Shown here piece after piece: positions 5,891 through 61,172 of a stretch of 64,000 nt of DNA. The translations under genes were made by a program, and so were the position numbers. A model generated the notes under the pieces. The model was not told the origin of the DNA. It searched no databases and worked only from the letters and a program-made list of their open reading frames with translations. How positions within the stretch are numbered: position 1 is the first letter of the stretch; every line of letters starts with the position of its first letter. Source of the DNA: Candidatus Spongiisociaceae bacterium (GTDB taxonomy: Bacteria > Actinomycetota > Acidimicrobiia > Spongiisociales > Spongiisociaceae); NCBI GenBank assembly GCA_965262915.1, contig OZ253564.1, positions 2,048,001 to 2,112,000 of the forward strand, in the 5' to 3' direction.

Positions 5891-5995
5891 AGGAGGGTAC
5901 TGAAAACGCCCCCGTTGGCCCGGTGTGGTCGATGGCAAGGTGCGACGTCAGCGGGGTGACGGGCCAACCCTTATCCCGTTCTTCTGCACTCTCCA
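5891..5995 (+). repeat. family A element, copy 2
   Basis: AGGAGGGTACTGA...TTCTGCACTCTCC ends; inner stem GTTGGCCC...GGGCCAAC around CGATGGCAAGGTGCGACGTCA. Confidence 0.75.
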
Positions 5996-7870: not shown

Positions 7871-10052
7871 GACCGGCCACCTCGGGTACCTCCGTGGTCT
7901 GTCTGCAGAACAACTTGCCGTGCTCCGGCAGCCATCGACGCCCCTCGCTGCGTTCCGCCTCCTCTACATACCGCTGCAGGTACGCCTTCGTCGGCGGGCC
8001 TTGCGAGGAACGCCGCTGCCGGCGCGTACCACGCCGCCGTTTCACAGACGGATCACTGGTTCGCCGACCGATCGCCGTCAGCGAGAACCCGGCGCCGCAC
8101 GCGGTGATCAGCCCGCCGAACCAGACCATCCACTGGAGGGGGTAGACCCACACGTCGGCGTGGAGAGAGCGGTCGTCGATGCGGGTGAGTGACACGTAGA
8201 GGTCTCCCCGTGGGGTCGTGTACACAGCCGGGGTGATGACCGGCCCCGACGTGCTGCCGTAGTCGTTGAGCCTCGGAGCGAGGACGGTGACCGGCCGTCC
8301 GTCCCGGAATACCTCGATCCGGGCGCCCACCACCGTGCGGTTGGGCTCCACCCGGGAGAACGGGGCATCGTAAGCAAGCTCGTAACCGCCGAACGCGGTG
8401 CGTTCCCCGGGGCTCAGGTCTATCGAGCCGGTCGCCCCCAGGTTGGCGGAAACCGCGATTCCGACGGCCAGGATCGCCACTCCCGTGTGCGAGATCTGGC
8501 CCCCCCAGTAACCGGGATCGCGGAGGGCCAGGCGACCCGCGGCCGCAAACGCGCCCTCGCCGGTGGCCGCGCTCCGGCTGCGGGCCAGGGTCAGCAGGTG
8601 CCGGGCGATGGCGGAGACCACGAAAGTCGCCAGAAGGGCAACGATGATCACGTGACGGTTGCGGCTCACCACCAGCACGACGACGGCGGCGATCGCCAGG
8701 GCGATCCTGAGAGGGGTGCGGAGGCGCTGCCACAGCACCCGAGGGCGCGCCACCCGGAACGGGGTCACCGGGCCGATGCCCATGGTCAGGAGGAGACAGT
8801 ACGAAAGCGGTACGGCCCAACGATCGAAGAAAGGTCGGCCCACCCCGACAGTGGCGCCCCGGAAGGCTTCGATCCCCAACGGGAACAGCGTTCCGGAGAG
8901 CACCACGAAGGCGAACACCGCCAGTAGCAGGTTGTTGAGCAGGAAGGCACCCTCGCGGCTGGCGAGCGAGTCGAGCCGCGGAGCGCTTCCCACGAGATGG
9001 ATCCGGGCGGCGAAGCAGGCCAGCGCCCCGACCAGGATCAGGGCCAGGAACCCCAGGAGGGCTGGACCGATCGCGGACTGGGTGAAACTGTGAACCGAGG
9101 CGATCACACCCGAGCGGGTGAGGAAGGTCCCGAGGATGGTGGCCGCGAAGGTGCCGATCACCAGCACGTAGTTCCAGGACTGGAGCACCCCTCGGCGGGC
9201 CTGCACCACAGTGGAGTGGATGAACGCGGTGGCCAGCAGCCACGGGATGAACGAGGCGTTCTCCACCGGATCCCACGCCCAGTAACCGCCCCACCCCAGT
9301 ACCTCGTAACTCCACCAGGCGCCCAGGACGATCCCGACCGTGAGGAACCCCCAGGCGGTCAGGGTCCACCGGCGCGTCACTTCCAGCCAGGAAGCCCCGC
9401 GGCGGGCGGCGGCCAGCGACGCCATCCCGATCGCGAAGGGCACCGAGAAGCCGACGTACCCCGCGTAGAGCAGAGGTGGATGGACCGCCATGAGGATGTG
9501 GTTCTGCAGGAGGGGGTTGGCGCCCCGCCCGTCGACCGGTGCGTCCACCGGCGACCACGGAGCCCAGGCAGCGACGCTGCATCCGGCTTCGGCAGCCGAT
9601 GTACAGACGGCGAAGGGGTTGGCGACAGTGACCATGAGACCGAACCAGAAGGCGGCCAGCATCCCCAGGATCGACATCGTGCCGCCCGCCAGAGGGTGCC
9701 CTGTGCGGTACATGGCCCGGAACGCGGATGCGGTGAAGATGGCCAGCACCAGGCCCCACAGGACGATGGATCCCTCGAGCGCCGCCCATCCGGCTGCCAC
9801 CGTGAAGATGAGGGGGGTGCCCGTCCGGTGGTTGTTGGCGATATAGGCGATCGAGAAGTCATCCGTTACCAGTCCCAGTTCCAGCATCAGCATGGCGGCG
9901 ATCGCTCCGCCCAGGAGCCAGCGCACCGGCCCCCGTACCCGATCAGCCGTCACCGGTCCCCGGGCCAGGAGCGCAGGAAGCCCTCTCCAGGCAAGGACCG
10001 CTGCCGCGGCGAGAGCGGTCAGGGTTGCGCCGAGCCCGAGCCAGGCGATCAT
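7863..10052 (-). CDS. ccmF: heme lyase CcmF (C-terminus extended by an in-frame repeat insertion)
   Basis: WWSYEVLGWGGYWAWDPVENASFIPW (WWD domain), HPPLLY, SVHSF. Confidence 0.96.
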   Translation of the reverse strand: MIAWLGLGATLTALAAAAVLAWRGLPALLARGPVTADRVRGPVRWLLGGAIAAMLMLELGLVTDDFSIAYIANNHRTGTPLIFTVAAGWAALEGSIVLWGLVLAIFTASAFRAMYRTGHPLAGGTMSILGMLAAFWFGLMVTVANPFAVCTSAAEAGCSVAAWAPWSPVDAPVDGRGANPLLQNHILMAVHPPLLYAGYVGFSVPFAIGMASLAAARRGASWLEVTRRWTLTAWGFLTVGIVLGAWWSYEVLGWGGYWAWDPVENASFIPWLLATAFIHSTVVQARRGVLQSWNYVLVIGTFAATILGTFLTRSGVIASVHSFTQSAIGPALLGFLALILVGALACFAARIHLVGSAPRLDSLASREGAFLLNNLLLAVFAFVVLSGTLFPLGIEAFRGATVGVGRPFFDRWAVPLSYCLLLTMGIGPVTPFRVARPRVLWQRLRTPLRIALAIAAVVVLVVSRNRHVIIVALLATFVVSAIARHLLTLARSRSAATGEGAFAAAGRLALRDPGYWGGQISHTGVAILAVGIAVSANLGATGSIDLSPGERTAFGGYELAYDAPFSRVEPNRTVVGARIEVFRDGRPVTVLAPRLNDYGSTSGPVITPAVYTTPRGDLYVSLTRIDDRSLHADVWVYPLQWMVWFGGLITACGAGFSLTAIGRRTSDPSVKRRRGTRRQRRSSQGPPTKAYLQRYVEEAERSEGRRWLPEHGKLFCRQTTEVPEVAGRA
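7893..8057. repeat. family B element, copy 2 (inside the ccmF reading frame)
   Basis: 165 bp, homologous to 1037-1201; ends GTGGTCTGTC...GACGGATCACT. Confidence 0.85.
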
Positions 10053-12738: not shown

Positions 12739-13208
12739 ACACCGAGTGTAGAGCGACCTTCCGCCGCAGGCTCAGTCCGGCGACAGAAGCTGCGCCTCGG
12801 GCATGTCGGCTCGGAACAGAGCCGAGCAATACCATCAGCTAGCGAAGAATCTCCGCCGCCCACCCCTCCATCGGCCCACCCCACACCACCGAGCCTGGGA
12901 TTGGAACGCGTTCGGTTCCACCTGCGACGGGCGGTCCGGTTCCGAGGTTCATGGTCCCTCGGGGGGTCGGATGACGTCCGGTTCGAGACCCGCGGCGGGT
13001 GCTGGCACTACCCGTAGTGCAACAAGGCAATGACAGCGCCAAACCCTTCGCGGGGCACATCTTGCCGCGCCGCATGCGTGCCTACCAGCGTACGTTCTCA
13101 GTCGATCCACCGTCGTAGGCCTGCCCGGGTTCATAGGATCACTCATGAGACGACGAGCGGACTTCATCGAACCTCGTCCCTCAAGAAACGACGAGGAGGG
13201 GGACAGCC

Positions 13209-14234: not shown

Positions 14235-14362
14235 TTATCGGTTGTCGGTTGCAACTCTTAATGGTATTTCACTACAGATACAGGTTTGCTAACGAGGGCT
14301 AAGTACGGTTGCCGTCCCCTGACACCTGACACCTGACACCTGACACCTGACACCTGACACCT
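14235..14362 (+). repeat. heptamer-repeat element: AT-richer lead-in plus (CCTGACA)6
   Basis: Six tandem CCTGACA at 14318-14359; the preceding ~85 bp align with 37293-37381. Confidence 0.85.
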
Positions 14363-14560
14363 AGAACGTGCCGGTGTTTAGCACCGGCTGGGTGGCCCTG
14401 TCTCCGCACAGCACGACGAGCAGGTTGCTCACCATGGCCGCCTTACGTTCCTCGTCGAGTTCGACGACGCCGCGGTCGGCCAGGCTCTCAAGAGCTATCT
14501 GCACCATGGGGACGGCCCCCTCCACGGTCTGGCTGCGGGCGGCGTTGATGGCCCGGCCTT
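14361..14560 (-). pseudogene. C-terminal fragment of an SPFH/band-7 protein
   Basis: Minus frame reads [63 protein letters not shown]-stop; no N-terminal part before hisIE ends. Confidence 0.75.
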
Positions 14561-14594: not shown

Positions 14595-15236
14595 TCACCG
14601 GCGCCGGGAGGCCAATTCCTCGATCACTTCCGCGGCCTTGATGCGCCGCTCGGCCAGGAGGACCAGCAGGTGGTAGACGAGGTCCGCCGCCTCTTCGGCT
14701 ACCCGGGTGTTCCCGGCTCTCCCAGCCTGGTGGTTGAGGGCGGCGGTCACCAGCTCGGCGGCTTCCTCGATCGTCTTGCGGCCCGTGGCGGGCGCGCCTC
14801 CGGTGGCCAGGCGCCGGGTGTAGGAGCCCGATCGTGCCGATGACAGCCGTTCCGTGATGGTTTTCCAGAGGGGTTCCAGATCGGCGAAACCCTGGGGCGG
14901 CGTCAAGGGGTCCCCGGGGCTGATGAAGCAGGTGCGGGCCGACGTGTGGCAAGTGGGTCCGGCAGGCACTGCCTTCACCACCAGGGTATCGCGGTCGCAG
15001 TCCGCCGCTAGGCCGACCAAGGCGAGCGTGTTCTCGCTGGTCTCCCCTTTTTTCCATAATCGTCGCCGGGAGCGGGACCAGAAGTGGACCTGACCCGTGG
15101 CGCGGGTCAGGTCGAGGGCTTCCCGGTTCATCCAGGCCATCATCAGAACCTCGCCGGTCCGGTCATGCTGGACGATGGCGGGTACCAGGCCGTCGCTGTT
15201 CCAGGAGATGTTATGCGATACGTCGGGTTCACGCAT
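14595..15236 (-). CDS. hisIE: bifunctional phosphoribosyl-AMP cyclohydrolase / phosphoribosyl-ATP diphosphatase
   Basis: [26 protein letters not shown], then [12 protein letters not shown]. Confidence 0.96.
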
Positions 15237-15990
15237 GGCGTACCGGTATCCCGGCCCCTTCCATCACCTGCTTGATCTCACCGATCTCCACTTCCCGCCG
15301 GTGGAAAATCGAGGCGGCCAGCACGGCGGATGCTCCGGCCTCGACCGCTTCGACGAAGTGTTGGGCGCGGCCGGCGCCTCCCGATGCGATCACCGGAACA
15401 CTCACCGCGCCGGTTATCACGCGTAGCAGTTCCACGTCGAACCCGATGTTTGTTCCGTCCCGGTCCATCGATGTGAGCAGGATCTCCCCTGCGCCGCGGG
15501 CCACCCCCTCTACCGCCCATTCCACCGCGTCGATTCCGGTGTCGTGGCGTCCGCCGTTTATGAACATGTTCCACGATCCTCCGGGCATGGTCTTGGCGTC
15601 GATGGCCAGGACCACGCACTGCTTACCGAACGCGGCCGCGCAATCGTCGAGTAGGCCGGGCCGGCGTACCGCGGCGGTGTTGAGGGAGACCTTGTCGGCC
15701 CCGGCCCGGAGCACGGCCCGCATGTCGGCCGGTTCCCGAACCCCTCCCCCCACGGTGAGCGGCACGAAGACGTTCCGAGCCGTGCGTCGGACTACGTCGA
15801 GCAGAGCGGAACGCCCCTCGGGGGAGGCGGCGATGTCGAGGTAGACGATCTCATCCATCCCCTCTTGGGCGTAGCGGGTCGCCAGCTCGACAGGGTCGCC
15901 CTCGTCGGTGAGGTTGATGAAGTTGACCCCTTTGACCACCCGTCCGTGCTTGACGTCGAGGCAGGCGATGATCCTCGTTCGGAGGCTCAT
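15229..15990 (-). CDS. hisF: imidazole glycerol phosphate synthase cyclase subunit
   Basis: [43 protein letters not shown]. Confidence 0.97.
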
Positions 15991-16646
15991 GCCGACACTC
16001 CCGCAAATCTCTGCGCTCCGGAGAGCCCCGCGACCTCGGTGACGAAGTTGGACAGAAGCTGCAATCCGGCCTTGCCGCTCCGTTCCGGGTGGAACTGGAA
16101 GCCCACCCGGAGACCGCTGCGGACCGCTGCTACGAACGGGCGTGGATAGCGGGCATACGCGATCACGCTCGACGGGTCCTCGGGGACCGGCGCGTAGCTG
16201 TGGACGAAATAGAACGTGTCGGCCGGTGTGATACCTGCGAAGACCCGATCCCGGGATGCCCAGGCTCCCGGGACCTCGATATCGTTCCAGCCGATGTGGG
16301 GGAGGAGGGGCGCTCCGACCAGGCGTCTCACCACGCCCCGGTCCAGGCCCAGGCACGGCTCCCCGTCCTCGTCGCTGCGGCTGTAGAACAGTTGCAGGCC
16401 CACGCAGATCCCGAGGAGGGGCCCGTTCCATTTGCGGAGGGGTTCCACCAGACCCGCCTCGGTGAGCCGGGCCATCGCCGTGCCCGGAACCCCTACGCCG
16501 GGGAGCACGATCGCTTGGGTTCCCCGCAGGTCCTCGGGTCCGGTCACCATACGCACGCGGGCGCCGGTTATCTCGAGTCCCCGCGCTATGGACACCAGGT
16601 TGCCGGCGCCGTGGTCGATCACAGCCACCAGCGGCGCCGCGGTCAC
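15987..16646 (-). CDS. hisH: imidazole glycerol phosphate synthase glutaminase subunit
   Basis: [37 protein letters not shown]. Confidence 0.96.
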
Positions 16647-17245
16647 GAGCCCGCCTCCATGGCCGGTGTCCCCTTGGTCGAAGCCATCCCGCTCCGCCTC
16701 GGGTCGGGTGCGACCGCGACTCGCAACGCCCTCGCGAGAGCCTTGAACGCAGCCTCCGCGACATGGTGGTCGTTGCGGCCGGTGGCCGTGACGTGGAGGG
16801 TCACGCCCGATGTCCGGGCGAACGCTTCCAGGGCGTGCGAGAGGTTCTGGGTGGTGAGGTTGCCGATGTAGGGGGTGTCCAACTCGATCCGGGCGACGCA
16901 ATAGGGCCGTCCTCCCACGTCGACCGTTGCCTGCGCGATCGCCTCGTCCATCGGTATGCGGGCATCCCCAAAGCGGTGTATTCCGGTCCGGTCTCCCAGC
17001 GCGCCCGCCAGCGCCTCGCCCAGGCAGAGAGCCGTGTCCTCGACGGTGTGGTGATCGTCGACCTCCACATCGCCCTCCGTGATGATGGTGAGGTCGAAGA
17101 GGGCATGGTGGGCGAGCGAGGTCAGCAGGTGATCGAAGAAACCGATCCCTGTTCTCACGTCGGCCCGACCCTTCCCGTCGAGATCGATCTCGACCGACAC
17201 CCGGGTCTCCTTGGTGTGGCGGCGGCATGTGGCCTGGCGGGGCAT
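16643..17245 (-). CDS. hisB: imidazoleglycerol-phosphate dehydratase
   Basis: [29 protein letters not shown]. Confidence 0.97.
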
Positions 17246-18616
17246 TCAAGCCTCCTCGCTGTAGGGGTCTTCGTTTTCCATGCTCGTGGCGGGAGCATTC
17301 TCGAACCGCACCGAGGCGGCCATCCGGTGGGCGTCCAGACCCTCGGCTCCGGCAAGTTCCTCGATGACCGGCCGGATGGATTCCAGCCCGCGGCGGGTAA
17401 GGGTCTGGACCTGCCTCCACGAGCCGAAGTCCTCGACTCCGAGCGGTCCGTGCGATCGGGCCAGACCTCCGGTGGGCAGCACATGGTTGGCTCCCGTGGC
17501 GTAGTCTCCCGCCGACTCGGGTGACCACCTGCCCACGTATACGGAGCCTGCGTTCACCAACCGGTCCGCGTCCCTCCGGGCGTCGGCGGTCAGCACGGTC
17601 GCGTGTTCGGGGGCGTAGGCGTTGGCGAATCCCAGGGCATCGTCGAGGGACGCGGCCACGAGGGTCTCCCCGTGGGCAGCCAGCGCGGACCGAAGGATGT
17701 CCCGGCGGGAGAGGAGAGGGAGGAACCCGGCGATCTCGGTCTCGACCCTGGCCGCCAGGGTCGGGTCGGTGGTGACCAGCACCGCCGGGGAGTCGGGGCC
17801 GTGTTCCGCCTGGCAGAGGAGGTCGATCGCCACCAGCCGGGGATCTGCCGTGTGGTCGGCTACCACCAGCACCTCGCTGGGGCCAGCCGGCAAGTCGATG
17901 GCACAGGCGCCGTACACCTCCAACTTGGCAGCCGTCACCCACGCGTTGCCGGGGCCGACGATCTTGTCTACGTTCGGGATGGTCTCGGTTCCGTAGGCGA
18001 GAGCCGCCACAGCCTGGGCGCCACCCATGGCGTATAGCTCGTCCACGCCCAGCAACCCGGCCGCGGCGAGCAGGGTGGGATCGAGCCTGCCGTCCTCGTC
18101 GCAAGGGGATGCCACCGCGATCTCGGCCACACCCGCCGCCTGGGCGGGTACCACCGTCATCACCAGGCTGGAAGGGTAGGCGGCCTTGCCTCCGGGTACG
18201 TAGGCCCCCACCCGGCGGAGCGGGGCCCAGCGGCGGTCGATCCGCACTCCGGGCCGGGTCTCCTGGGAGCTGGCATCCGGCGTCTGGGCTTCGTGGTGGC
18301 GCCTCACGGCGTCGATCGCTTCCTCGAGAGCCCGGCGGACCGATCCGTCCGTGTCCTCCAGGGCGGCGGCGATCTCCCGGGCCTGAACCCCGGGATCGGC
18401 CCGTCCGCCGCCGTAGGCGGCGCTCGCCTCTGCCAGCGCCCGGTCGCCGCCCAGCTCGATCGACCGGCAGATGGCGGCTGCCCCCCGGCGTACCTCCCGA
18501 TCGGGAACCGCCGACCGGGTCGTCAGCTCGCGCCGGTCGCCGGCGTCGAGGTCGGCCAGGCGGCGGGCCCTCAGCAGGGTCGCAGGCGCATCGGAGGCCG
18601 GCGCAGCCAGTCTCAT
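17246..18616 (-). CDS. hisD: histidinol dehydrogenase
   Basis: GAYVPGG, GGAQAVAALAYGT, KIVGPGN, AGPSE, QAEH, APEH, GANHVLPT. Confidence 0.97.
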   Translation of the reverse strand: MRLAAPASDAPATLLRARRLADLDAGDRRELTTRSAVPDREVRRGAAAICRSIELGGDRALAEASAAYGGGRADPGVQAREIAAALEDTDGSVRRALEEAIDAVRRHHEAQTPDASSQETRPGVRIDRRWAPLRRVGAYVPGGKAAYPSSLVMTVVPAQAAGVAEIAVASPCDEDGRLDPTLLAAAGLLGVDELYAMGGAQAVAALAYGTETIPNVDKIVGPGNAWVTAAKLEVYGACAIDLPAGPSEVLVVADHTADPRLVAIDLLCQAEHGPDSPAVLVTTDPTLAARVETEIAGFLPLLSRRDILRSALAAHGETLVAASLDDALGFANAYAPEHATVLTADARRDADRLVNAGSVYVGRWSPESAGDYATGANHVLPTGGLARSHGPLGVEDFGSWRQVQTLTRRGLESIRPVIEELAGAEGLDAHRMAASVRFENAPATSMENEDPYSEEA

Positions 18617-19485
18617 GGCACCAGCTGTCCTATCGGAAGCACGAGGATGTCGCGGCCGCCGGCCGCCTTGAGCCGCGGGAGGATGTTCCACACCTCGTCC
18701 CTCTCCACCACCGAGTGGATGGCCACCATCCCGTCCTCCGCCAGAGGGATCACGGTGGGCGCCTCGAGGCCGGGGATCAGGTCGGTGATAGCGGGCAGGG
18801 ACTCCCGGGAAGCGTTGAGCAGCAGGTACCGCCTGCGCCGGCCTGCCAGGACCGACTCGACCGCGGTTATGACCGCATCGACCTCGGTACCGGTCTCCGG
18901 TCCGTCGGTCCCTCGCACCAGTACAGCCTGGCTGTTCAGGATGGGGAGCACCGGACGCAGGCCGTTGACCATCAGCGTGCTTCCGGTCGAGACCAGGTCG
19001 GCCACCGCGTCGGCCACCCCGAGTTTGGGGGCTACCTCCACCGATCCCCGCAGTCGAACCACCTCGACCGATACCCCATGCGCGGCGAAGAACCGCCCGG
19101 TGAGGTTGGGGTGGGAGGTGGCGATCCGCAGGCCCGCCAGGTCCTGGGGACACCCGTGGTCTCTTTCTCTGGGAACCGCAACGGTCAGCTGGCACTGGCC
19201 GAAACCGAGTGGCAGGACCGCACGGACGCTGTCGGCCGGCCGGCCTGATTCCTCGAGCAGGTCGAGTCCGGTGATACCAAGATTCGCCGCTCCGTCGGCC
19301 ACCAGTTCGACCACGTCCTCGGTGCGCACGAACAGGAGGTCGATATCGGCGTTGCGCACCTTCACCGACAGGGCTCTCTCGGTCTGCTCGAAGGCTAGGC
19401 CGGCCTCGCGGAGCAGCCTCAGGGTCGGTTCCCTCATGCGTCCCTTGTTGGGTACGGCCAGCCGCAAGGTCCCGTCACCCATCAC
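18613..19485 (-). CDS. hisG: ATP phosphoribosyltransferase (long form)
   Basis: LAVPNKGR, GITGLD, GSVEVAP, DLVSTGSTL, C-terminal regulatory domain. Confidence 0.96.
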   Translation of the reverse strand: MMGDGTLRLAVPNKGRMREPTLRLLREAGLAFEQTERALSVKVRNADIDLLFVRTEDVVELVADGAANLGITGLDLLEESGRPADSVRAVLPLGFGQCQLTVAVPRERDHGCPQDLAGLRIATSHPNLTGRFFAAHGVSVEVVRLRGSVEVAPKLGVADAVADLVSTGSTLMVNGLRPVLPILNSQAVLVRGTDGPETGTEVDAVITAVESVLAGRRRRYLLLNASRESLPAITDLIPGLEAPTVIPLAEDGMVAIHSVVERDEVWNILPRLKAAGGRDILVLPIGQLVP

Positions 19486-19784
19486 AGACCTCCCTCGATC
19501 CGGTCGAGCGCCAAGCGGTACCCACCCGTTCCGTGCAGCCGCCATTCGTTGACCCTTCCTATGGTGGTGGTCGATACACCGGTCCGATCCGATACCTGCC
19601 GGTAGGGCAGGCCGGATTCCAGTAAGGTCGCCACCGACCAACGGCTCGACAGTTCATCGATCTCGTTGCGCGTGCACAGGTCGCGCAGGAACAGCGCCAC
19701 CTCGTCCACCGTGTCCAGCGTCAGGATGGCGCGGCACAGCGCGTCGAACTCGTCGGTCCTCCATCGTTCCTGGCGGGTGGTCAT
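19482..19784 (-). CDS. TrpR-like (YerC/YecD, HisR-type) repressor
   Basis: FLRDLCT..E, RW.VA..L, YRQVSDRTGVSTTTIGRV; first gene of the his operon. Confidence 0.9.
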   Translation of the reverse strand: MTTRQERWRTDEFDALCRAILTLDTVDEVALFLRDLCTRNEIDELSSRWSVATLLESGLPYRQVSDRTGVSTTTIGRVNEWRLHGTGGYRLALDRIEGGL

Positions 19785-21479: not shown

Positions 21480-21688
21480 GCGTTTGAACCTGTCACGCGG
21501 CCGTTGCATACTGTTAGGTAGCCGTATACACCAGCGGTCCGTTTACGACGTCGAACGGACCGGGGCAGGGATCACATTGTCCGTACCGACCCTCCGAGGG
21601 CGGATGGACGGACGCGCCCGGAGCCGAGGAGGTGGCGGCGGGGGCGGGCCCGCGGCAGGGCTCCGGGCGGGCGTTTTTCGCGCTCTCG
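21480..21688 (+). repeat. promoter-plus-hairpin unit, copy A (candidate ncRNA or leader)
   Basis: TTGAAC-N17-CATACT (21484-21512) and hairpin 21535-21562; homologous to the reverse complement of 24047-24256. Confidence 0.75.
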
Positions 21689-21760
21689 TTATTGGGAACC
21701 GGTTGGGTCACGTGCTCGGCCGTTCCGGAGTGCCCGCGACGATTCCACACTCGGGACACC

Positions 21761-21862
21761 AGGAGGGTGCTGAGGATCCCCCGGTTGGCCCGACGTTCGA
21801 TGGCAAGATGCGAGGTCAACGGAGAGCGGCCCAACGTCTTGATCGTGTTTCGGCATCCTCCT
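21761..21862 (+). repeat. family A element, copy 3
   Basis: AGGAGGGTGCTGAG...TTCGGCATCCTCCT; right end overlaps the CTAG supplying the lipoprotein stop. Confidence 0.8.
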
Positions 21863-22460
21863 AGGAAATGGCCGCGTCTCCTTCGGTTCCCACTACTGTC
21901 CAGCCGTCCGGTCCTTCGGTGACGCGGTAGGTGAGCCAGATACCGCAAACACCGCCGCACCACAGGTTGGCGCCGACCGTCGCTCCTTCCCGATCGAACT
22001 CGACAGGCGCCAGCGTGAGGATGGCGCTTCCCGGGATGACCGGCTGGAGGACATCCTGTTCTATGAACTCGCTGCGGCTGCTGATGAAACTCACCGGCGA
22101 GAGGTCTTCGATGGCGGCTGCGATGGCGGATCTCTCTTCTCCTGTGAGTGGATCACCCGGTCGGCGGTTCGCCACGTAATCCCCGGCGGTGGCCTCGACA
22201 TGATCCACGACCAGCACCTCCGTGAATCGGTGATCCGGTCCGAACGTATTGTTGAAGTCGACGAGTTGTTGTGTCACAGCGGCGTAGATGGCGGCCGAGG
22301 CCGGAGCACGCTCGTCCTCGGTGAGCGGGTCGCTCCTGCAGGCAGGTATGAGCAGCAACCCGACGAGCAGGACGATTGCGGTGCCGAATGCCGCGGTAGT
22401 CCCGATCGGCTGCTGTCGGTCCGGAATCCGTGCATCATACGGTCCGGTGCTGGTTCTCAC
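21861..22460 (-). CDS. hypothetical lipoprotein
   Basis: Hydrophobic stretch ending LIPAC; WCGGVCG motif near the C-terminus; AGGAGG at the GTG start. Confidence 0.65.
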   Translation of the reverse strand: MRTSTGPYDARIPDRQQPIGTTAAFGTAIVLLVGLLLIPACRSDPLTEDERAPASAAIYAAVTQQLVDFNNTFGPDHRFTEVLVVDHVEATAGDYVANRRPGDPLTGEERSAIAAAIEDLSPVSFISSRSEFIEQDVLQPVIPGSAILTLAPVEFDREGATVGANLWCGGVCGIWLTYRVTEGPDGWTVVGTEGDAAIS

Positions 22461-22538
22461 CCTCCTGATCCGATCGTTACGAGTGTGGGTGTAGCGTGAA
22501 ACATAAATATGGGCTCAATAGCCAATATACTCATACAG

Positions 22539-22781
22539 ATGCGAACCACCATCGAAGTGAACGATGAGTTGTTCCGGAAAGCGAAACAGCTTGCGGCCGA
22601 AGAGGGCATCACCCTGCGCGAGATCGTCGAGTCGGGCATCCGTTCGGAGGTGGCGCGGCGTCACCGCGACACGTACCGGCTGCCCGACCGCTCGTTCGGA
22701 GGCCAGGGTGTTCAGGCCGGCATTGTTGAGGGCGACTGGGGATCCATCCGGGATACGATATATGCCGGACGCGGTGCATGA
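22539..22781 (+). CDS. vapB: type II antitoxin (VapB-like, RHH)
   Basis: MRTTIEVNDELFRKAKQLAA; ATGA overlap with the PIN gene. Confidence 0.85.
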   Translation: MRTTIEVNDELFRKAKQLAAEEGITLREIVESGIRSEVARRHRDTYRLPDRSFGGQGVQAGIVEGDWGSIRDTIYAGRGA

Positions 22782-23221
22782 TCGCGGTCGACACCAACGT
22801 ATTGGTATACGCTCATAGACGTGATTCGGCGTTTTATAGGAGAGCGGCCGAGGCGCTGCGCACGCTGGTGGAGGGCCGGGCGGCATGGGCCATCCCGTGG
22901 CCGAGCGTGCACGAGTTCCTGGCCATCGTCACCCACCCGCGTATCTATAACCCGCCCACACCGGTTGCCGATGCGACCGAACAGGTGAGGGTCTGGCTCG
23001 AAGCGCCTTCGGTTGTCCTGCTTCACGAGGCCGGCGACCATGGGCGGGTTCTGTCGGAGCTGTTGGTATCGACCAACACCACGGGACCCCGGATTCACGA
23101 TGCCCGGATAGCCGCGATCTGTATCTCGAACGGTGTTCGGGTCCTCTGGTCGGCTGATCGTGACTTCGGTAGGTTCCCGATCGAAGTGCACAACCCGGTG
23201 GTGGGAGTTCCCGGCAGCTAG
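22778..23221 (+). CDS. vapC: PIN-domain toxin VapC
   Basis: MIAVDTNVLVYAH, HEF, HDARIAA, SADRDF. Confidence 0.92.
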   Translation: MIAVDTNVLVYAHRRDSAFYRRAAEALRTLVEGRAAWAIPWPSVHEFLAIVTHPRIYNPPTPVADATEQVRVWLEAPSVVLLHEAGDHGRVLSELLVSTNTTGPRIHDARIAAICISNGVRVLWSADRDFGRFPIEVHNPVVGVPGS

Positions 23222-23308
23222 CTGTGGCCGGACGGCCGTTACAGTCTGCGGGGACGGCCGTGTTCTGCCCGCGGTCCCCCGGCTCACCGAGGATGAAGGC
23301 GAAACGCG

Positions 23309-24022
23309 ATGGAGATCTACCCGGCGATCGATGTCCTGGGGGGCAAGGTGGTACGCCTCCTTCGGGGCGACTACGGCGCCGCCACTACGTACGGCGACTC
23401 GGTCGAGGATCAGTTGGCCGCCTGGACGGACGCGGGGGCCCGCTGGGTGCACGTGATCGACCTCGACGGGGCACGCACCGGCACTCCCGATCCGGCCCTC
23501 TGGAACAAGGTGACCGGGAAGGACGTCTCGGTGCAGGTAGGTGGGGGGATACGAGCCGTCGAGGATGTGGAGGCAGCTCTCGAATGCGGGGTTACCCGGG
23601 TGATCATGGGCACCAGCGCGGTGTGGTCGCCCGGAATACTGGAGGAGGCGATCCGTCGCAGCGCGCCGGACCGTGTCGTGGCCGCCATCGACGTTCGCGA
23701 CGGTCGGGCCGGGGGAGCGGGTTGGCTGGACGAGGGGCGGAAGTTCGAGCAGGTGGTGGAAGGCGCGCTGGGGGCCGGAGCGGTGACGTTCCTGGTCACT
23801 TCCATACGTCGGGACGGCACCCTCGCCGGTCCGGACCTGGAACTGCTCGACCGGGTACGCTTGCTGGCGCCGGATGCCGAGATCATGGCCGCCGGCGGGA
23901 TAGCCCTCATGGACGACCTTCATAGCCTTGCTTCGGTCGGGATCGACGGGGCAGTGATCGGACGGGCCCTCTACGAGGGAACGATCGACTTGCGCGACGC
24001 GCTGTTGCAGATGCCCGGCTAA
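23309..24022 (+). CDS. hisA: ProFAR isomerase HisA (possibly PriA-like)
   Basis: IYPAIDVLGGKVVRL, HVIDLDGA, QVGGGIR, RDGTLAGPD, IGRALYEG. Confidence 0.93.
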   Translation: MEIYPAIDVLGGKVVRLLRGDYGAATTYGDSVEDQLAAWTDAGARWVHVIDLDGARTGTPDPALWNKVTGKDVSVQVGGGIRAVEDVEAALECGVTRVIMGTSAVWSPGILEEAIRRSAPDRVVAAIDVRDGRAGGAGWLDEGRKFEQVVEGALGAGAVTFLVTSIRRDGTLAGPDLELLDRVRLLAPDAEIMAAGGIALMDDLHSLASVGIDGAVIGRALYEGTIDLRDALLQMPG

Positions 24023-24046
24023 CCCCGCCCCCCATGCCGTCCGGAC

Positions 24047-24256
24047 CGAGAACGCGAAAGACGCCTGGACGGACCACGCCCGAGGGCCCGCCCCCGCCGC
24101 CCCCGCCGTCGACCTCGGAGCGCGTTCCTCCATTCCGCATGCGGGTCGCCTCCGAGCAATATGATCCCTGCCTCGGTCTGCTCGACGTCGGAAAGCAGAC
24201 CGGTGGTGTATACGGCTATCCAACAGTATACAACGGGGGTGTGACAAGGTCAACGC
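24047..24256 (-). repeat. promoter-plus-hairpin unit, copy B (candidate ncRNA or leader)
   Basis: Minus-strand TTGACC-N17-TATACT (24253-24225) and hairpin 24174-24202. Confidence 0.75.
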
Positions 24257-24337
24257 CCTCGTAGCCGGACCATTGATCGCTGAATCGGCGCTCTCTTGTT
24301 GACCGACGGGCCGCCGGTGTCTTGCTCGGGAGCCTTC

Positions 24338-37627: not shown

Positions 37628-40019
<2,392 letters not shown>

Positions 40020-40381
40020 CAATATCTGTCCATTCGCTACACGAACCGGCTCACCGAAGCCGGCATCGAACCATCAGTCGGCTCGGTCGGCGACTCGTAC
40101 GACAACGCCCTCGCCGAATCCGTCATCGGCCTGTACAAGACAGAACTCATCCACAAACGCGCTCCGTGGAAGGACCTCGACCAAGTCGAGTACGCCACCC
40201 TCGAATACGTCGACTGGTTCAACCACCGGCGGCTTCTCGAACCCATCGGAGACATCCCACCAGCAGAAAAGGAGGCCAACTACCATCAACAACAGGAACG
40301 AGTCCAGCTAGCTGGACTCAAGTAAAACACTCTCCGGGAAACCCGGTACGGTTCAGGGGTGGTGTGTGGGGTGGGGGTTGT

Positions 40382-41833
40382 TCAGATGGTGTGGATGTGT
40401 TGGTGGGTGGTCGCGATGAGGGTGGCGGTGGGCCAGGTGGGCGGTATTCGGAGGGTGGTTTGTCGGCTGTGGCGTGCGATGACGCCTGGTATGTGCCATA
40501 GGTTCGGGCGCAGTGTTTTGGGTTTGGCTCGGGTGAGGGGGTGGTGTTTGGGTAGGGAGAGTTTCTGGAACCAGCGGACCAGGGTGTCGGCGAGGGCGAC
40601 TATGTGGAGCCAGAGCCGGTTAGGGGCGTATCTGGCGAATGGGAAGCGGTTGCCGCCGTGGTCTTTGACGCGGGCGATGTGGGTTTCGACTCGGGCGTGG
40701 GCGCGCATGTCGCGGTCGGATTCGGGAGCGGCTGCTTTGCTGTCGGTCCAGTGTCCCCAGTATCGGTAGTCCTCGGAGCCGAACAGGGATCGTTTCGCGC
40801 CGGGGTGGCGGGGTTCGCGTCTGATGACGAGTCGGAGGTCGTCGGGCCAGTTGTAGGCTTTGACGTGGTCGGTGAGTTCGATCACATGGGCACGAACCGG
40901 ATCAGGTTCTGCGTCTTCGGTCCCGTTGTCGGAGCGGACAGCGTCGGGTCCCTCCTCCGGGTTGTCGACCCCTGCGGTGTTCGGGTTGTTGTGTTGGGCT
41001 GGTCTGGGTTGGGGAAGGGCAGGCTCCCAGCGTGGGTCGTCTACGGGGATGTGGCTGAGGGCTTCGGCGATCCCGTCGGAGCGTTTAGCGACGAAACTGA
41101 ACCCGATGTTACGTTTGTGGCATTCGGTAGCGAACGCGGGTCCCGCCGCGGAATCGGCCCGGACCCGGATCCGATAGGCCACCCGCTCGGGGTCGTCACC
41201 CGGCGAATGCCCCACCCGCATCCGGGCGGGCAGCGCCCTGATAGCCGCGTCCAGCACCTCGACCAGGTCAGAAACCTGATTAGGCGCGGCGTTGCCTCGC
41301 CGCAGCCGAACAGCGAGCGGCTCCCCCGTCCAGTCCGCGAAGCAATACATCGGATGGAACCCGTACTTGTAGTTATAGGTCGGCGCGGCGCCCGCCTTGT
41401 TCTCCGAATGCAGCTCATGAACCGACGAATCAATATCCAGCACCACCGTCTCCCCTGCCGGGTAATCAGCCCACACCCGCTCCCGGACCCTGGCCATCCC
41501 GTCGGCCAGCCTCTCCACCAACCCCCCATCCGCTCCGGTGAGGGTCCGGTACAGAGTCGAGTCCGACGCCACCTCACCGAACAATCGGCGCTGGGAACGC
41601 AACGTCTCGATGTCAGTGCAAGCCTCCCCACCCCCGGCCAACACGAGCATCAAATGAACCAGCACCCGGCCCCGATCATGAACCACCCCCGAAGCACCGA
41701 ACGCTTCCGACAAAACCTCGCCCACCCGCAGACGATCCGCGAACCGGCCCAACAACCACAACCCCACATGACCGACCTGGCTGCCACCACCCACCTCGAC
41801 CCTCAACGCCAAACTGCTGTTAGCCTTCACCAT
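40382..41833 (-). CDS. IS1380-family transposase
   Basis: VASDSTLYR, VLDIDSS, YGFHP, LRRGNA, VRADSA, RAHARVETHI. Confidence 0.9.
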   Translation of the reverse strand: MVKANSSLALRVEVGGGSQVGHVGLWLLGRFADRLRVGEVLSEAFGASGVVHDRGRVLVHLMLVLAGGGEACTDIETLRSQRRLFGEVASDSTLYRTLTGADGGLVERLADGMARVRERVWADYPAGETVVLDIDSSVHELHSENKAGAAPTYNYKYGFHPMYCFADWTGEPLAVRLRRGNAAPNQVSDLVEVLDAAIRALPARMRVGHSPGDDPERVAYRIRVRADSAAGPAFATECHKRNIGFSFVAKRSDGIAEALSHIPVDDPRWEPALPQPRPAQHNNPNTAGVDNPEEGPDAVRSDNGTEDAEPDPVRAHVIELTDHVKAYNWPDDLRLVIRREPRHPGAKRSLFGSEDYRYWGHWTDSKAAAPESDRDMRAHARVETHIARVKDHGGNRFPFARYAPNRLWLHIVALADTLVRWFQKLSLPKHHPLTRAKPKTLRPNLWHIPGVIARHSRQTTLRIPPTWPTATLIATTHQHIHTI

Positions 41834-41952
41834 ACGGGTGCCCTCCTGACTGCGACCATGGACGTTTACTTCACCGCCCATAATCGCAGGTCAGAAGGGC
41901 ATTCCCGTGTCAAACCACCCACCCCCACCACCAACCCCATGAAGAATTGGGG

Positions 41953-42058
41953 CTAGGTGCTAGGTGCCAGTACTTGATGATCGTCAACAGCACCTGACAC
42001 CTGACACCTGACACCTGACACCTGACACCTGACACCTGGCACCTGGCTCCCGACACCT
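41953..42058 (+). repeat. right part of the heptamer-repeat element (AGGTGCT units, core, CCTGACA run)
   Basis: 41955-41994 is identical over 40 bp to 45295-45334; followed by tandem CCTGACA/CCTGGCA. Confidence 0.88.
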
Positions 42059-42064
42059 AACCCT

Positions 42065-45246: not shown

Positions 45247-45378
45247 CCGGCACCTGACTCCTGACTCCTGACACCGAAACAGGTGCTAGGTGCGAGGTGC
45301 TAGGTGCCAGTACTTGATGATCGTCAACAGCACCCCGGCACCCGGCACCTGGCACCTGACGCCTGACACCTGACACCT
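45247..45378 (+). repeat. heptamer-repeat element, most complete copy (IS110 target)
   Basis: CCTGACT/CCTGACA run, GAAACAGGTGCTAGGTGCGAGGTGCTAGGTGCCAG, core, then CCCGGCA/CCTGGCA/CCTGACA run; continues as GACACCTGAC after 46861. Confidence 0.88.
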
Positions 45379-45399
45379 AATGGGGGTCCACCACTTCTG

Positions 45400-45617: not shown

Positions 45618-46839
45618 ATGATATTTGTGGGTAACGACTGGGCTGAGGGCCACCATGATGTGTATCTGCTGGACGAGGGTGGGACCCGGCTGGGGTTCGC
45701 CCGTCTCCCGGAAGGCCTGGCGGGTGTGGCCCGGTTCCACCAGATGGTCGCCGAGCACGCATCGGATGCGGCTGAGGTAGTGGTAGGCATCGAGACCGAT
45801 CGTGGTCTGTGGGTGGGTGCGCTGGTCGCGGCGGGCTATGTGGTGTATGCGATCAACCCTAGGGCTGTGTCCCGCTACCGGGACCGTCACAGCCTGGGCG
45901 GAGCTAAATCAGACCGCGGTGATGCCAAGGTGTTAGCTGATCTGGTACGCACCGACCGTCACAACCACCGTCCCGTGGCCGGTGACAGCCCCGAATCGGA
46001 AGGTATCAAGATCGTGGCCAGAACCCATCAGAACCTGATCTGGGCTCGGACTCGTCACACCAACCAGGTCCGCAACGCTCTGCGCGAGTACTATCCCGCA
46101 GCGCTGGAAACGTTCGCTGACCTGGCCCATTCCGACGCTGTGGCCGTACTGGGTCGGGCACCCACCCCCAGCATGGGCGCTCGCCTGACGTTGCCCCAGA
46201 TCCGAGCTGCGCTCAAAAGGGGCGGACGGCGACGCAACCTCGATCCGGTCGCCCGCCGTATCCAAGCGGGCCTCCGAGCTGCTCACCTCGCCGCACCGGG
46301 GCCGGTTGAGGACGCCTTCGGAGCGACTGTCGGGGCACTGGTGAGCATCATTGGGGAGGCCAACCGCCAGATCAGCCAACTCGAAGCAACCCTCCAGACC
46401 CGTTTTGAGCAGCACCCGGACGCCGTCATCTACCACTCCCAGCCAGGACTCGGTACTGTGCTCGGCGCCCGGGCGCTCGGTGAGTTCGGGGACGACCCCC
46501 ACCGTTACACCAGCGCCAAGTCTCGCAGGAACTACGCCGGAACGTCGCCCATCACCGTGGCGTCGGGCCGCAAACGTGCTGTCCTGGCCCGCCACGTCCG
46601 AAAAGCGGCGTCTCTACGACGCCTTGGACCAATGGGCGTTCTGTTCCCTAACCCCAAGCCCAGGAGCCCGAGCCTTCTACGACCAGAAACGAGCAGCCGG
46701 CGACCTCCACCACCAAGCACTCCGAGCCCTAGCCAACCGACTCGTCGGCATCCTCCACGGCTGCCTCAAACACCAAACCCCCCACAACGAACACACCGCC
46801 TGGGCACACCGAACCACCATCGACCGAGCCGCAGCTTGA
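45618..46839 (+). pseudogene. IS110 recombinase/transposase with a frameshift near 46600
   Basis: MIFVGNDWAE, GIET, KSDRGDA, PGLGTVLGARALGEFGDD, YAGTSP; the C-terminus (RRLYDALDQWAF...ALRALANRL) is in another frame after CGAAAAG. Confidence 0.88.
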
Positions 46840-47743: not shown

Positions 47744-50665
47744 ATGGCATTTCCGGGACCTGATGAACTGGGCCGCGGGGTGGTCGTGTCGCCCGGCGCC
47801 CCGTCGCCCTTCGACGCTGCGCGGGTCACGGTGGATGCCGCCCTCCTCGCGGACGAGGAGCGCTTGGAAGAGACCGTCGAGCGCCTGCACCGGGCCTGGG
47901 TCGCCAGGGAGCGGGTGGTCGTGGAGTTGGATGTCGACCAGGGGGAACTGCGCCGGCCGGTAAGCGACCAATCCCCGCCCTGGCGCCTGGGCCCCGCCTT
48001 CACCTTCCTGCGGGAGCGGCTCCACTTCCTGGTGTGGGCCAACAACTGGGACCTGCGGAGCGGCCTCCCGGTCTGGTGGTGGGCCCGCAAGGCCGCCGCC
48101 TTGGGGGCGGATGTCGGCGGCGAGGCCGATGTCGTTCTGCCCGACGGGACCGCGGTCTGGGTGGACGGCGGGCCCCGCGCCCCGTTCGGTCTCCCGGTGG
48201 TCCACGCCGAGTCGGTGGAGTCGGGCCGCCTGGCGCCGGCTCGAGCCACGGTTCCGGCCGGCGAGGAACTGGCCCCGGATCAGATGGCCGCGGTAGGGCA
48301 CGGAGGGGGCCCGGCCCGGATCATCGCTCCGGCCGGATCGGGCAAGACCCGAACCCTAAACGCCCGCCTGGCCCACCTGGTCGACCGGCGGGGAATCGAG
48401 CCCTGGCTGGTCACCGCGGTGGCCTACAACAACCGCGCTGCGGCCGAGATGCGAACCCGCCTCGGAAGAACGGATCTCCATATCCGCACCATCCATTCCC
48501 TCGGCTGGCGGATACTCCGCGATGTGCGGCCCGGCGCCGAACTCCTCGACGACCGGCGGGTGCGGGCACGCCTGGGCAGGCTGATCCCGAGGAGGCCGAG
48601 GCTCAACACCGACATCATCGGTCCCTACATCGAGGCGTTGGCGGACGTACGCATCGCCCTGCGCCCCCCGGTGGAGGTCGAGGAGGACCGGGACGATGTC
48701 CCCGACCTCGCCCGGGTCCTCACTGACTATCGCTCCGGTCTTGCCGAGCGCGACGAAGCCGACCACGACGAGCAGGTGTACGGCGCCATCGAGTTGCTCC
48801 TGGCCGATCCGGACCTCCGGCACACGTGGCAGCGGCGCTGCCGGCACCTGCTGGTGGACGAGTTCCAGGACCTGACCCCGGCCTACGTGCTCCTCCTACG
48901 ACTGCTGGCTTCCCCCGGCCTGGCGGTGTTCGGGGTGGGGGACGACGACCAGACCATCTACGGGTATGCCGGGGCGGATCCAGGCTTCCTCCTGGACTTC
49001 GACCAGTTCTTTCCCGGCGCCGCCGTCCACGCTCTCGAGGTCAACTACCGGTCCCCGAGCGAGGTGGTGGAGGCGGCCACCTCGCTCCTGGACAACAGCC
49101 GGCGACGGATACCGAAGACCATCCGTGCGGTTGGCGGACCCGACCCCGAAAGCCTCCGGATCGCTCGGTTACCCGGGTCGGCCATCACGTCGGAGGGGGT
49201 GGGGACGATCACCGCTTGGCTGTCGGAGGGGGTTTCGCCCGACGCGGTGGCAGTTCTGGCCCGGGTCAATTCGGCCTTGCTTCCGGTACTTGCCGGACTC
49301 GACGCCGCCGGGGTTCCCGTGAGCTCGCGCATATCGCCCGGCCTCCTGGACCGGACGGTGATGCGGGCCACCATGGCTTGGATACGCCTCGGTCTGAACC
49401 CCGGGGAGATGTGGCGGCAGGACCTGCTCGAGGCCGCCCGCCGCCCTTCCCGAAGGATCAACCGCCTCTCGGCCGAACTGGTGCCCCGCGAATGGCCGGT
49501 CACGCTGGATGGCCTGGCCGGCTTGGGCCGGGGTCTCGAGAGGCGTCATGCCGAGGCCTGGTCCGGTTGGATGGACGATGTCCACCGGGTGGTGGAGGCG
49601 GCGAGTACCGGCGACTCCGGCGCCGTGCTGGACCAACTCATCGATGTGGTCGGGCTAGGTGGGGCAGCCGACCTACTCGATCGCGGGCGAACCCGAGTCG
49701 ACCGGGCCGCCCACTCCGACGACCTGGTCGCCTTACGCCGGGCCGCGGCCATCTACCCGGACGTGGAGGACTTCGAAGATCGGCTTCGCACCCTCCTCGA
49801 CCGCCACACGCGGCGACCCGGTCCGGCGGGGGCCGGAGTCACCCTGTCGACCGTCCACCGGGTGAAGGGCATGGAGTGGGACCGCGTGGTGGTGTTCGGG
49901 GTGGACGACGGGCTGATGCCCCATGCCCTCTCCGAGGACATCGAAGAGGAGCGGCGCGTGCTGCACGTGGCGATAACCCGGGGCCGCCACCGGGTGCTGG
50001 TAGTAGCCGACGCCGACCGGCCGTCCCCTTTTCTCGCCGAGATGGCGGGCGAGAAGGTCCGGGTCCCGCGGTTGCCGGTGCCTGCGGTCGAGGAGGTTGC
50101 CGATCCGGCCGCCGGGCCGGTGGATGAGGACCTGCTGGAGAGGCTCAAGTCGTGGAGGCTGGAGACGGCAATGGAACGGGGGGTCCCCGCATATGTGGTG
50201 TTCTGGGACCGTACCCTCAAAGAGATCGCGGCGGCCCGACCCCGGACCGAGTGGGAGTTGTCTGATCTGTACGGCGTCGGCCCCACCAAGTTGAAGGAGT
50301 ACGGTGAGGGCCTCCTCGAGCTGGTGAGGGCCACTCCCGGCGCTGTTACCGACGTGCACGATGGGGCTTCCACTGCCCTCGGTCGTGTGGCGCCACCCGC
50401 GGAGGTCGGCGCCCCGGCCGCGCTGCCTGAGCGGCCGGTGGATGAGGACTTGTTGGAGAGACTCACGGTCTGGCGACTGGAGCGGGCTCAGAAGTCCGGT
50501 AGTCCCCCCTACATCGTCTTTCGCAACCGCACTCTCGAGGAGATCGCGGCCCACCAACCGCGTACCGAAGCCGAGTTGCTGGATCTCTACGGTGTCGGCC
50601 CGGCCAAGTTGGACGAGTACGGTGAGGAAGTCCTCGAGCTGGTCCGGGACCATACCGCTTCCTGA
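47744..50665 (+). CDS. UvrD/REP-family helicase with two C-terminal HRDC domains
   Basis: APAGSGKT, LVDEFQD, VGDDDQTIY, NYRS, STVHRVKGMEW, EERRVLHVAITR; two LxxWR..A...PxYxVF...TL..IAA..P units. Confidence 0.92.
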   Translation: MAFPGPDELGRGVVVSPGAPSPFDAARVTVDAALLADEERLEETVERLHRAWVARERVVVELDVDQGELRRPVSDQSPPWRLGPAFTFLRERLHFLVWANNWDLRSGLPVWWWARKAAALGADVGGEADVVLPDGTAVWVDGGPRAPFGLPVVHAESVESGRLAPARATVPAGEELAPDQMAAVGHGGGPARIIAPAGSGKTRTLNARLAHLVDRRGIEPWLVTAVAYNNRAAAEMRTRLGRTDLHIRTIHSLGWRILRDVRPGAELLDDRRVRARLGRLIPRRPRLNTDIIGPYIEALADVRIALRPPVEVEEDRDDVPDLARVLTDYRSGLAERDEADHDEQVYGAIELLLADPDLRHTWQRRCRHLLVDEFQDLTPAYVLLLRLLASPGLAVFGVGDDDQTIYGYAGADPGFLLDFDQFFPGAAVHALEVNYRSPSEVVEAATSLLDNSRRRIPKTIRAVGGPDPESLRIARLPGSAITSEGVGTITAWLSEGVSPDAVAVLARVNSALLPVLAGLDAAGVPVSSRISPGLLDRTVMRATMAWIRLGLNPGEMWRQDLLEAARRPSRRINRLSAELVPREWPVTLDGLAGLGRGLERRHAEAWSGWMDDVHRVVEAASTGDSGAVLDQLIDVVGLGGAADLLDRGRTRVDRAAHSDDLVALRRAAAIYPDVEDFEDRLRTLLDRHTRRPGPAGAGVTLSTVHRVKGMEWDRVVVFGVDDGLMPHALSEDIEEERRVLHVAITRGRHRVLVVADADRPSPFLAEMAGEKVRVPRLPVPAVEEVADPAAGPVDEDLLERLKSWRLETAMERGVPAYVVFWDRTLKEIAAARPRTEWELSDLYGVGPTKLKEYGEGLLELVRATPGAVTDVHDGASTALGRVAPPAEVGAPAALPERPVDEDLLERLTVWRLERAQKSGSPPYIVFRNRTLEEIAAHQPRTEAELLDLYGVGPAKLDEYGEEVLELVRDHTAS

Positions 50666-52332: not shown

Positions 52333-52382
52333 GGAGGAGTCGCAGTCCGGAATCCGGCCCGGCCCGGCCCGGCCCGCCAATG

Positions 52383-61146: not shown

Positions 61147-61172
61147 GGCCGGATTCGTCTCGGGAACAATCG

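Follow-up and report, generated by a model that had tools for sequence, protein, structure and literature searches.

Introduction

Two described systems come closest to the subject of this study. In Pseudomonas putida, the element MITEPpu9, a miniature transposable element with inverted repeats (MITE), carries ssr9, a small-RNA gene that has its own promoter and is placed between ends resembling those of an insertion sequence (IS); it occurs solo, in multiple copies and in tandem, and it is described as a hitchhiker on a transposase that is supplied in trans (PMC12288879; PMC8450116). In Coxiella burnetii, the 300-400-bp MITE QMITE1 contains a sigma-70 promoter that yields small RNAs (PMC5896051; PMC10969869). 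In this study, which was based on a 64,000-nt stretch of the genome of a Candidatus Spongiisociaceae bacterium (Actinomycetota; contig OZ253564.1, positions 2,048,001 to 2,112,000; hereafter the window), we analysed two inverted units, A and B, each composed of a promoter and a hairpin, for which a sequence-only reading had proposed either a new structured RNA or the orphaned 5' ends of genes. Judging by their sequences, we lean slightly towards the view that a self-contained gene of ~170 nt for a non-coding RNA, which would be under selection, is represented by A and B, and probably by a third unit, C, and that this gene is borne by a MITE in their relatives.

Like MITEPpu9/ssr9, the family would be a MITE that carries a promoter-driven small-RNA gene, here a predicted one, and it is also found in tandem (PMC12288879). 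However, ssr9 makes use of the ends of IS110 and shows complementarity to an antisense RNA of an IS, whereas the family described here has terminal inverted repeats, a palindromic loop and a GGN tract (PMC12288879). This likeness is one of description, and no sequence relationship between the two is claimed. QMITE1 belongs to another phylum, and the consulted sections of its reports mention neither RNA motifs that outlast the ends of the element nor a covarying palindromic loop (PMC5896051; PMC10969869). Terminal inverted repeats, the lack of coding capacity and, tentatively, a TA-type target are shared with the IS630-related MITEs RUP and Correia/NEMIS, but the element here is twice their size, is GC-rich, has a promoter that reads into a conserved cargo and uses a degenerate C-Y-R-G target (PMC2229807; PMC2170065). 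IS630 itself, according to the title of a reference listed in PMC2170065, prefers the TA in CTAG. As in the HIV-1 dimerisation initiation site (DIS) and the oskar 3' untranslated region, a stable stem is capped by a loop that contains a GC-rich six-nucleotide palindrome (PMC7357161); unlike these two, the family is bacterial, its loop is 10-11 nt long with pyrimidines on the 5' side, and its dimerisation is only predicted (PMC7357161). The 6C RNA of high-GC Gram-positive bacteria resembles the family to the extent that the strand opposite the G tract is rich in C (PMC6486639); speculatively, this RNA could bind to that of the family as a partner instead of being related to it. The family is a member of neither MITEPpu9/ssr9 nor QMITE1 nor any Rfam family.

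Results

A BLASTN alignment of A (21484-21688, +) with B (24253-24047, -) extended over 209 columns with an identity of 77.5% (expectation value, E, 1.6e-38), so that the two inverted paralogous units of ~210 bp that had been described are real. A profile of A and B that was searched with nhmmer detected no copy besides these two within the window. The -35 and -10 boxes with their 17-nt spacers could be read directly from the sequence in both units, as had been claimed (Table 1). A promoter scan called the promoter of B and did not call that of A, and the pattern TTGA-N18/19-YATA(C/A)T occurred three times on the two strands of the window, two of these being A and B. Transcription is expected to start at ~21518-21520 in A and at ~24217-24219 in B. 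Direct reading also confirmed the 9-bp stems of the hairpin P1 with their two compensatory swaps, which are unlikely to have arisen by chance because all nine Watson-Crick pairs were kept in only 0.24% of the simulated four-substitution sets (2.2% when G-U was allowed). The loop 8-mer CGACGTCG is present in both units, as described, and has three sites in the window, in which there are 23 perfect 8-bp stems with 8-12-nt loops; a palindromic hexamer was found in four of these, and three of the four rows are A and B.

The motif GGCAGGGATCA and the G tract, which follow P1, are as the sequence-only reading had described them, but the GC stem that it placed around the G tract did not stand because its registers differ between A and B. 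The 3' halves of the two units fold in different registers, and the folding of the whole units compared with shuffles gave z-scores of -1.80 (A) and +0.62 (B), with -1.59 and +0.57 for the reverse strands. The units do face the lipoprotein-like and hisA-family genes; however, the antisense overlap that had been suggested was not upheld, as the conserved part of A stops 170 nt and that of B 25 nt before the stop codons and, therefore, there would be no overlap without read-through. The homology of A with its relatives continues to 21759. A covariance-model search of Rfam 15 gave no match at the gathering score in A or B (the best E-values in or near the units were 1.6-9.9, with scores far below gathering), which agrees with the earlier statement that no known Rfam family was recognised, and ARAGORN found no tRNA or transfer-messenger RNA.

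Because gene callers are expected to leave spurious open reading frames (ORFs) over such DNA, A was searched as a protein, and for this purpose it was translated in the frame of its -35 box. The first protein search produced 12 matches (E 8e-11 to 7e-4), a profile of these 12 gave 33 matches among 8000 scored candidates, 25 of which were new, and a reverse-strand protein search added one further homologue only. The family thus totals 38 homologous spurious ORFs, all of which are unnamed and none of which has a credible Pfam domain. The homologues match A in blocks and their frame changes between the blocks (22 frame patterns in 37 rows); therefore, DNA and not protein is what is shared. The proteins were aligned to one nucleotide profile, and the counts given below use only those bases that are fixed by the amino acid, which are referred to as determined; the tree leaves out P0011, P0035 and copy C. 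A scan of a genome collection with the pattern GTATACACC-N24/42-GGCAGGGATC returned 19 loci, all of them chance matches (best nhmmer E 0.23, scattered taxa), and this pattern cannot match the main clade, which reads CGTAAGCAC, so that the result is uninformative as to the range of that clade. In plasmid and phage records, BLASTN and TBLASTN found at most weak matches of short length, and when the flanks of the homologues were compared with the window, the gene neighbourhoods of A, B and C showed no synteny with them. Among the papers listed by a literature search, no description of the element was seen, although supplementary catalogues of RNAs or MITEs, e.g., those of large MITE surveys, could contain one.

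The ends of the aligned rows form two sets and, therefore, two nested units, an element and a core, can be distinguished. On the left side, an unaligned flank of 45 nt or more is present in 19 rows, of which 13 begin at profile columns 0-21 and five at columns 104-124; on the right side, such a flank is present in 26 rows, of which 18 end at columns 404-443 and five at columns 325-332. The outer unit is ~395 bp long and its arms start with GTGTCC and abut C-Y-R-G; the inner one, which runs from just upstream of the -35 box to the T-run motif, is exactly the A/B homology. When the left arm of the inferred family consensus was compared with the reverse complement of the right arm, one of 1000 shuffles was as good. 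The 13 armed left ends represent eight flank groups, i.e., many insertion loci, and P0002 contains two copies head to tail. By its sequence features, which are terminal inverted repeats, dispersed copies with sharp ends and no coding capacity, the outer unit is a MITE. The earlier concern that the copies could be the ends of a known IS was partly justified in that most of the homologues lie inside an element with terminal inverted repeats, but no known IS end was identified. In the bases after the right end, the first is T in 12 rows and C in five, and the third is G in 20 of 21. A direct repeat at the insertion fits P0019, while P0010, P0013 and P0016 differ from one at a single position, and both flanks fit C-Y-R-G. 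The ends can be tentatively assigned to an IS630-like type with a target resembling the TA in CTAG; IS481-like ends of the form TGT...ACA would be an alternative to this label. Bridge or seek RNAs of IS110/IS1111 elements adjoin the recombinase gene or have its ends in common; the family did not show this feature, as its profiles gave no significant match at the IS110 gene of the window (starts at 45603; best E 3.1). In the tree, which is weakly supported, the copies without arms have long branches and are scattered over several of its parts; this placement suits the loss of the arms.

Within the core, TTGA of the -35 box was unchanged at all 64 determined bases and positions A2 and T6 of the -10 box at all 75, while position 5 of the -10 box varied among A, C and G. 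At the level of sequence, this invariance is the pattern of a working housekeeping promoter. The match to the family consensus was 97% in the motif GGCAGGGATCA that follows P1, 94% in the G tract and 92% in P1 compared to 85-88% in the arms and the middle part, and the core blocks were better conserved than the arms even in the armed copies. Of the 259 determined bases in the 3' motif, which is the probable 3' end of the RNA in copy A, nine were mismatched. Changes affected 2 of 484 G's of the G tract, compared to 18 of 91 bases in its spacers and 6.8-10.4% in G columns elsewhere, a difference that the sliding of gaps in G runs may inflate. In the rows that do not read the tract as poly-Gly, the G mismatches in the tract were 1/64 and 1/89 vs. 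13/222 and 25/314. Runs of seven GG pairs with a 3-nt period are found only at A and B in the window. A two-tier G-quadruplex enters the predicted fold of both copies, significantly in A (0 of 150 shuffles) and marginally in B (9 of 150); in these models, the GGN tract is possibly such a quadruplex or else a pairing or binding site. The promoter spacers of A (21490-21496), B (24247-24241) and C (13035-13030) have TGTCA in common, which is compatible with nearly all of the homologues and may be a regulator site. Two other readings were dropped: an inverted repeat that spans the -10 box and resembles an operator (in B, TGTATAC/GTATACA), which is absent from most homologues, and, by eye, the attC/attI-like GTTRRRY and REP-like GTAG motifs, which are in the wrong order and not conserved.

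The loop hexamer of P1 is GGTACC in most of the homologues, on which three frames agree, and GACGTC in A and B. The loop pair over the 2-nt gap was G-C in 24, A-T in four, G-T in one and A-C in one of the 30 determined rows, and the central pair was T-A in eight and C-G in two of the 10 determined rows, meaning that the palindrome is kept in 29/30 rows at the inner pair and in 10/10 at the centre; P0039 adds one more A-T at the inner pair. Hairpin loops need at least three bases. The inner loop pairs are too tight to form within one strand and, therefore, their upkeep points to pairing between molecules. The copies with GACGTC group in a single clade (bootstrap 99), and another change of the loop, the fourth base of which is not determined, is placed in a separate clade (82); on the tree, the loop evidence amounts to one full switch, with a 1.7% probability by chance in simulation, and one partial. 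The computed duplexes of each kind with itself had energies of -13.0 and -12.3 kcal/mol, compared to -0.7 kcal/mol for GGTACC with GACGTC. Both kinds are held side by side by P0002, in which the loop of the first copy is not covered. The stem of P0039 contains a determined U-G pair, which pairs on the promoter strand only. With the palindrome kept through sequence change among the homologues, the idea of a kissing dimer gains support, and the proposal of a structured small-RNA family is likewise supported as regards the small RNA by the promoter invariants and the wobble in the 38 homologues; the large fold that it included is reduced to one shared hairpin.

The third copy, C, was found with an imputed profile of the family from which A and B had been excluded (E 3.4e-4, 15.1 bits; the best of 31 control 64-kb sequences reached 8.2 bits) and was missed by the profile that was not imputed. 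Its sequence suggests that it is probably a much diverged core: its boundaries are those of the A/B core, and it has retained a G-rich tract and, at 12978-12973, the hexamer GACGTC, while its promoter and stem have decayed and the promoter scan calls none. Copy A has a right arm only, and B and C have neither arm. The right arm of A was 44/69 identical to that of the family (0 of 300 shuffles were as good) and also matched the reverse complement of the left arm of the family (1 of 300), while the left flank of A and both flanks of B matched no family arm (24 to 80 of 300 shuffles were as good). At its end, the right arm of A is interrupted by the unrelated ~98-bp element, which also adjoins the homologues P0007, P0020, P0021, P0030 and P0035. 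A 23-nt palindrome of the terminal sequence of this element (2250-2272) is contained in the RNase P RNA gene (2119-2496) and looks like its minimal footprint.

Table 1. Positions of the family copies and of the neighbouring features in the window.
Feature	Position	Strand	Basis or remark
Copy A, predicted promoter, sigma-70/SigA-type (-35 TTGAAC 21484-21489, 17 nt, -10 CATACT 21507-21512)	21484..21512	+	sequence, family invariants
Copy A, hairpin P1 (9-bp stem, 10-nt loop, palindrome CGACGTCG at 21546-21553)	21535..21562	+	
Copy A, conserved single-stranded motif GGCAGGGATCA	21564..21574	+	best conserved block of the family
Copy A, GGN tract (GG pairs fixed, spacers variable)	21628..21648	+	
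Copy A, conserved 3' motif with T run, end of the core module	21670..21690	+	
Copy A, degenerate right arm (ends GGGACAC, then CAG)	21691..21759	+	
Copy B, whole (core only, neither arm detectable)	24043..24262	-	
Copy B, predicted promoter (-35 TTGACC 24253-24248, 17 nt, -10 TATACT 24230-24225)	24225..24253	-	sequence, promoter scan
Copy B, hairpin P1 (9-bp stem, two compensatory swaps, palindrome CGACGTCG at 24190-24183)	24174..24202	-	
Copy B, GGN tract	24087..24107	-	
Copy C, probable third core, much diverged	12845..13046	-	imputed family profile
Unrelated inverted-repeat element of ~98 bp that adjoins A on the right, between CCAG and CTAG	21763..21860	.	relative at 5891-5968
Lipoprotein-like ORF	21861..22460	-	no Pfam family
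vapB	22509..22781	+	Pfam; context
vapC	22778..23221	+	Pfam; context
hisA-family gene	23309..24022	+	Pfam; context

Discussion

In the mechanism that we propose, transcription from a housekeeping promoter would yield a short RNA with its 3' end at the T-run motif, and P1 would expose the palindrome, which would pair with the same loop of a second molecule to form a kissing dimer and perhaps an extended duplex. The dimer would display two GGN tracts and could act in trans as a decoy for a protein that binds G-rich RNA or for a C-rich RNA. A transposase encoded elsewhere in the genome would move the armed copies in trans and, after a copy had become fixed, its arms would be lost or decay, while the core would stay. 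That the MITE carries an RNA cargo is fairly probable from the sequences; dimerisation through the P1 loop, which is a matter of modelling, is a tentative proposal that falls somewhat short of probable, and the decoy step is doubtful. Because the conservation inside the MITE sits on RNA-like features, the RNA reading is complemented and not displaced by mobility. It is unlikely that the whole of a bolder picture holds, i.e., that this is a new class of RNA in which the palindromic loop is a self-recognition code and the GGN G-quadruplex a bivalent decoy, and which spread as a selfish or beneficial gene between IS630-like ends and was then domesticated.

Several observations weigh against an RNA gene of this kind. 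The DNA of the homologues is inferred from amino acids, with most third positions undetermined, the aligner can slide gaps in G runs, and the homologues were selected by their similarity to A. Neither A nor B folds significantly better than shuffles as a whole unit, and the support for the G-quadruplex is mixed between them. In P1, 5 of the 14 changed cells break a pair, and a mismatch at the ninth pair, which the main clade has, is seen in 30 rows; in the loop, P0021 has A-C and P0031 loses the outer pair of the 8-mer. The change from GGTACC to GACGTC is one event, which would keep the palindrome by chance in about 1 in 16 cases if the loop were free. No clean covariation was found in the candidate 3' helices P3, P4 and P5; the terminator-like stem is broken in 16 of its 39 changed cells and P3 in 4 of 19, none being doubly changed. 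As regards mobility, the target duplication is not cleanly readable, a 2-bp duplication being indistinguishable from a 4-bp one, and no transposase with these ends was found in the window or in the plasmid and phage records. No partner for the decoy step was identified.

The main rival, which we consider unlikely, is that the core is the promoter and 5' leader of the mRNA of an IS630-like transposase, the hairpins of which would control the expression of the transposase. In that case, the MITE would be an internal deletion that joined the leader to the last transposase codons, and A, B and C would be relics. The end of the core coincides with the start of the right arm (columns 325-333), and the right arm ends in one frame with R-I-P-E-S-G-H-stop (P0027), which we take to be the look of IS630 transposase ends that run into the inverted repeat. 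ISPpu9 offers a precedent with its strong native promoter and long structured leader (PMC8450116; PMC12288879). However, no core runs into a piece of a transposase in the 38 homologues, A, B or C (Pfam; NCBIfam on 13), and a leader that has lost its gene should decay like the arms, yet the core is better conserved than they are and is kept in the armless copies.

A neutral MITE interior that spread recently, in which the palindromes of the stem and the loop were perfected by template switching during replication and not by selection on an RNA, is distinctly improbable. Small repeats and IS remnants abound in the host lineage, many of the homologues are close to one another, and the unremarkable folding of the whole units is also what such an interior would give. 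It does not explain the strong position-specific conservation, i.e., of A2 and T6 in the promoter and of the GG pairs vs. their spacers, nor why the armless copies are bounded at the start of the promoter and at the 3' motif, and wobble intermediates are not favoured by template switching. If either the leader or the neutral interior were true, the family would be no more than a new MITE of an ordinary kind, from an actinobacterial lineage that is poorly sampled.

We consider it very improbable that the role lies in the DNA, with an R-loop or G-quadruplex on the G-rich non-template strand and a cruciform hairpin promoting recombination or mobility, e.g., an inversion between A and B. The G tract is indeed on the non-template strand behind a promoter, and A and B are inverted around vapB, vapC and hisA, which are the sole plus-strand genes within a minus-strand run (14361-35819), while hisA is absent from its operon between hisH and hisF. 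The determined T-G stem pair, however, pairs on the promoter strand only, the quadruplexes are two-tier at most, and the identity of A and B (77%) is low for recombination, no inversion having been observed. The suggestion that a protein family left the units behind as orphaned 5' ends, or that they encode a Gly7/Pro7 leader peptide, found no support and is hardly tenable: an in-frame ATG does precede seven GGN codons in both A and B, but the coding scores are negative (-0.12 in A and -0.24 in B vs. +0.06 to +0.23 in the neighbouring genes), the 86-residue ORF of A has no homologue among 11 candidates, frames shift between the blocks, and the relatives translate the tract as poly-Gly, EEVAVGGGP or RRWRLG with no conserved start or stop. 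A 6C-like RNA from the reverse strand was also disfavoured, as there is no Rfam match and both the promoter and the wobble point to the G-rich strand.

To our knowledge, few natural bacterial RNAs oligomerise, and small RNAs encoded by MITEs amount to a handful of cases for which we know of no mechanism. If the core is an RNA gene as we propose, its natural loop variants, which are two orthogonal palindromes, make the family a short and cheap test case, and the family would illustrate how the spread of a transposable element can end with a new RNA gene left behind. The way in which the family was found also suggests that spurious ORFs in protein databases can reveal RNA families in lineages that genome collections miss.

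Other features of the window

An amidase gene is divergent from A, and a GCS2-family ligase gene is located upstream of B (both Pfam). The Atlas clusters of the lipoprotein-like ORF at 0.95-0.96 are unnamed and mostly from Actinomycetota, and its stop codon lies within the CTAG that adjoins the ~98-bp element. The his operon (14595-19784, -) comprises a trpR-like gene and hisG, D, B, H, F and IE, and the hisA-family gene is 3.5 kb away on the plus strand between A and B; the strand switch of vapB, vapC and hisA gives the impression that an inversion or an insertion of the A-B interval has taken place.

Further repeats and mobile elements were observed in the window. A ~165-bp repeat with inverted ends GTGGTCTGTC is present in three copies (1033-1202, 7894-8058 and 60983-61150) that are 84-91% identical, and from its sequence it looks like another MITE. 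Arrays of the heptamer CCTGACA/CCTGGCA are located at 14318-14370, 41949-42059 and 45289-45379, with a shared 5' leader at two of the sites, and such arrays also adjoin the homologues P0004 and P0015. A cluster of IS remnants (37906-41833) contains an IS3 element with an apical loop-internal loop (ALIL) pseudoknot, IS30, IS3 and IS1380. The Rfam family Ms_AS-4 matched at 46439-46520 (-; E 1.2e-11), antisense within the IS110 transposase gene, which suggests that this family models a segment of IS110; the frame of this transposase loses its similarity near residue 340, probably by a frameshift. The end of a UvrD-like helicase has tandem duplicated HRDC domains with 74% DNA identity (50115-50643), and an IS982 fragment (51676-52455 region) is followed by a near-perfect 73-bp palindrome (52383-52455).

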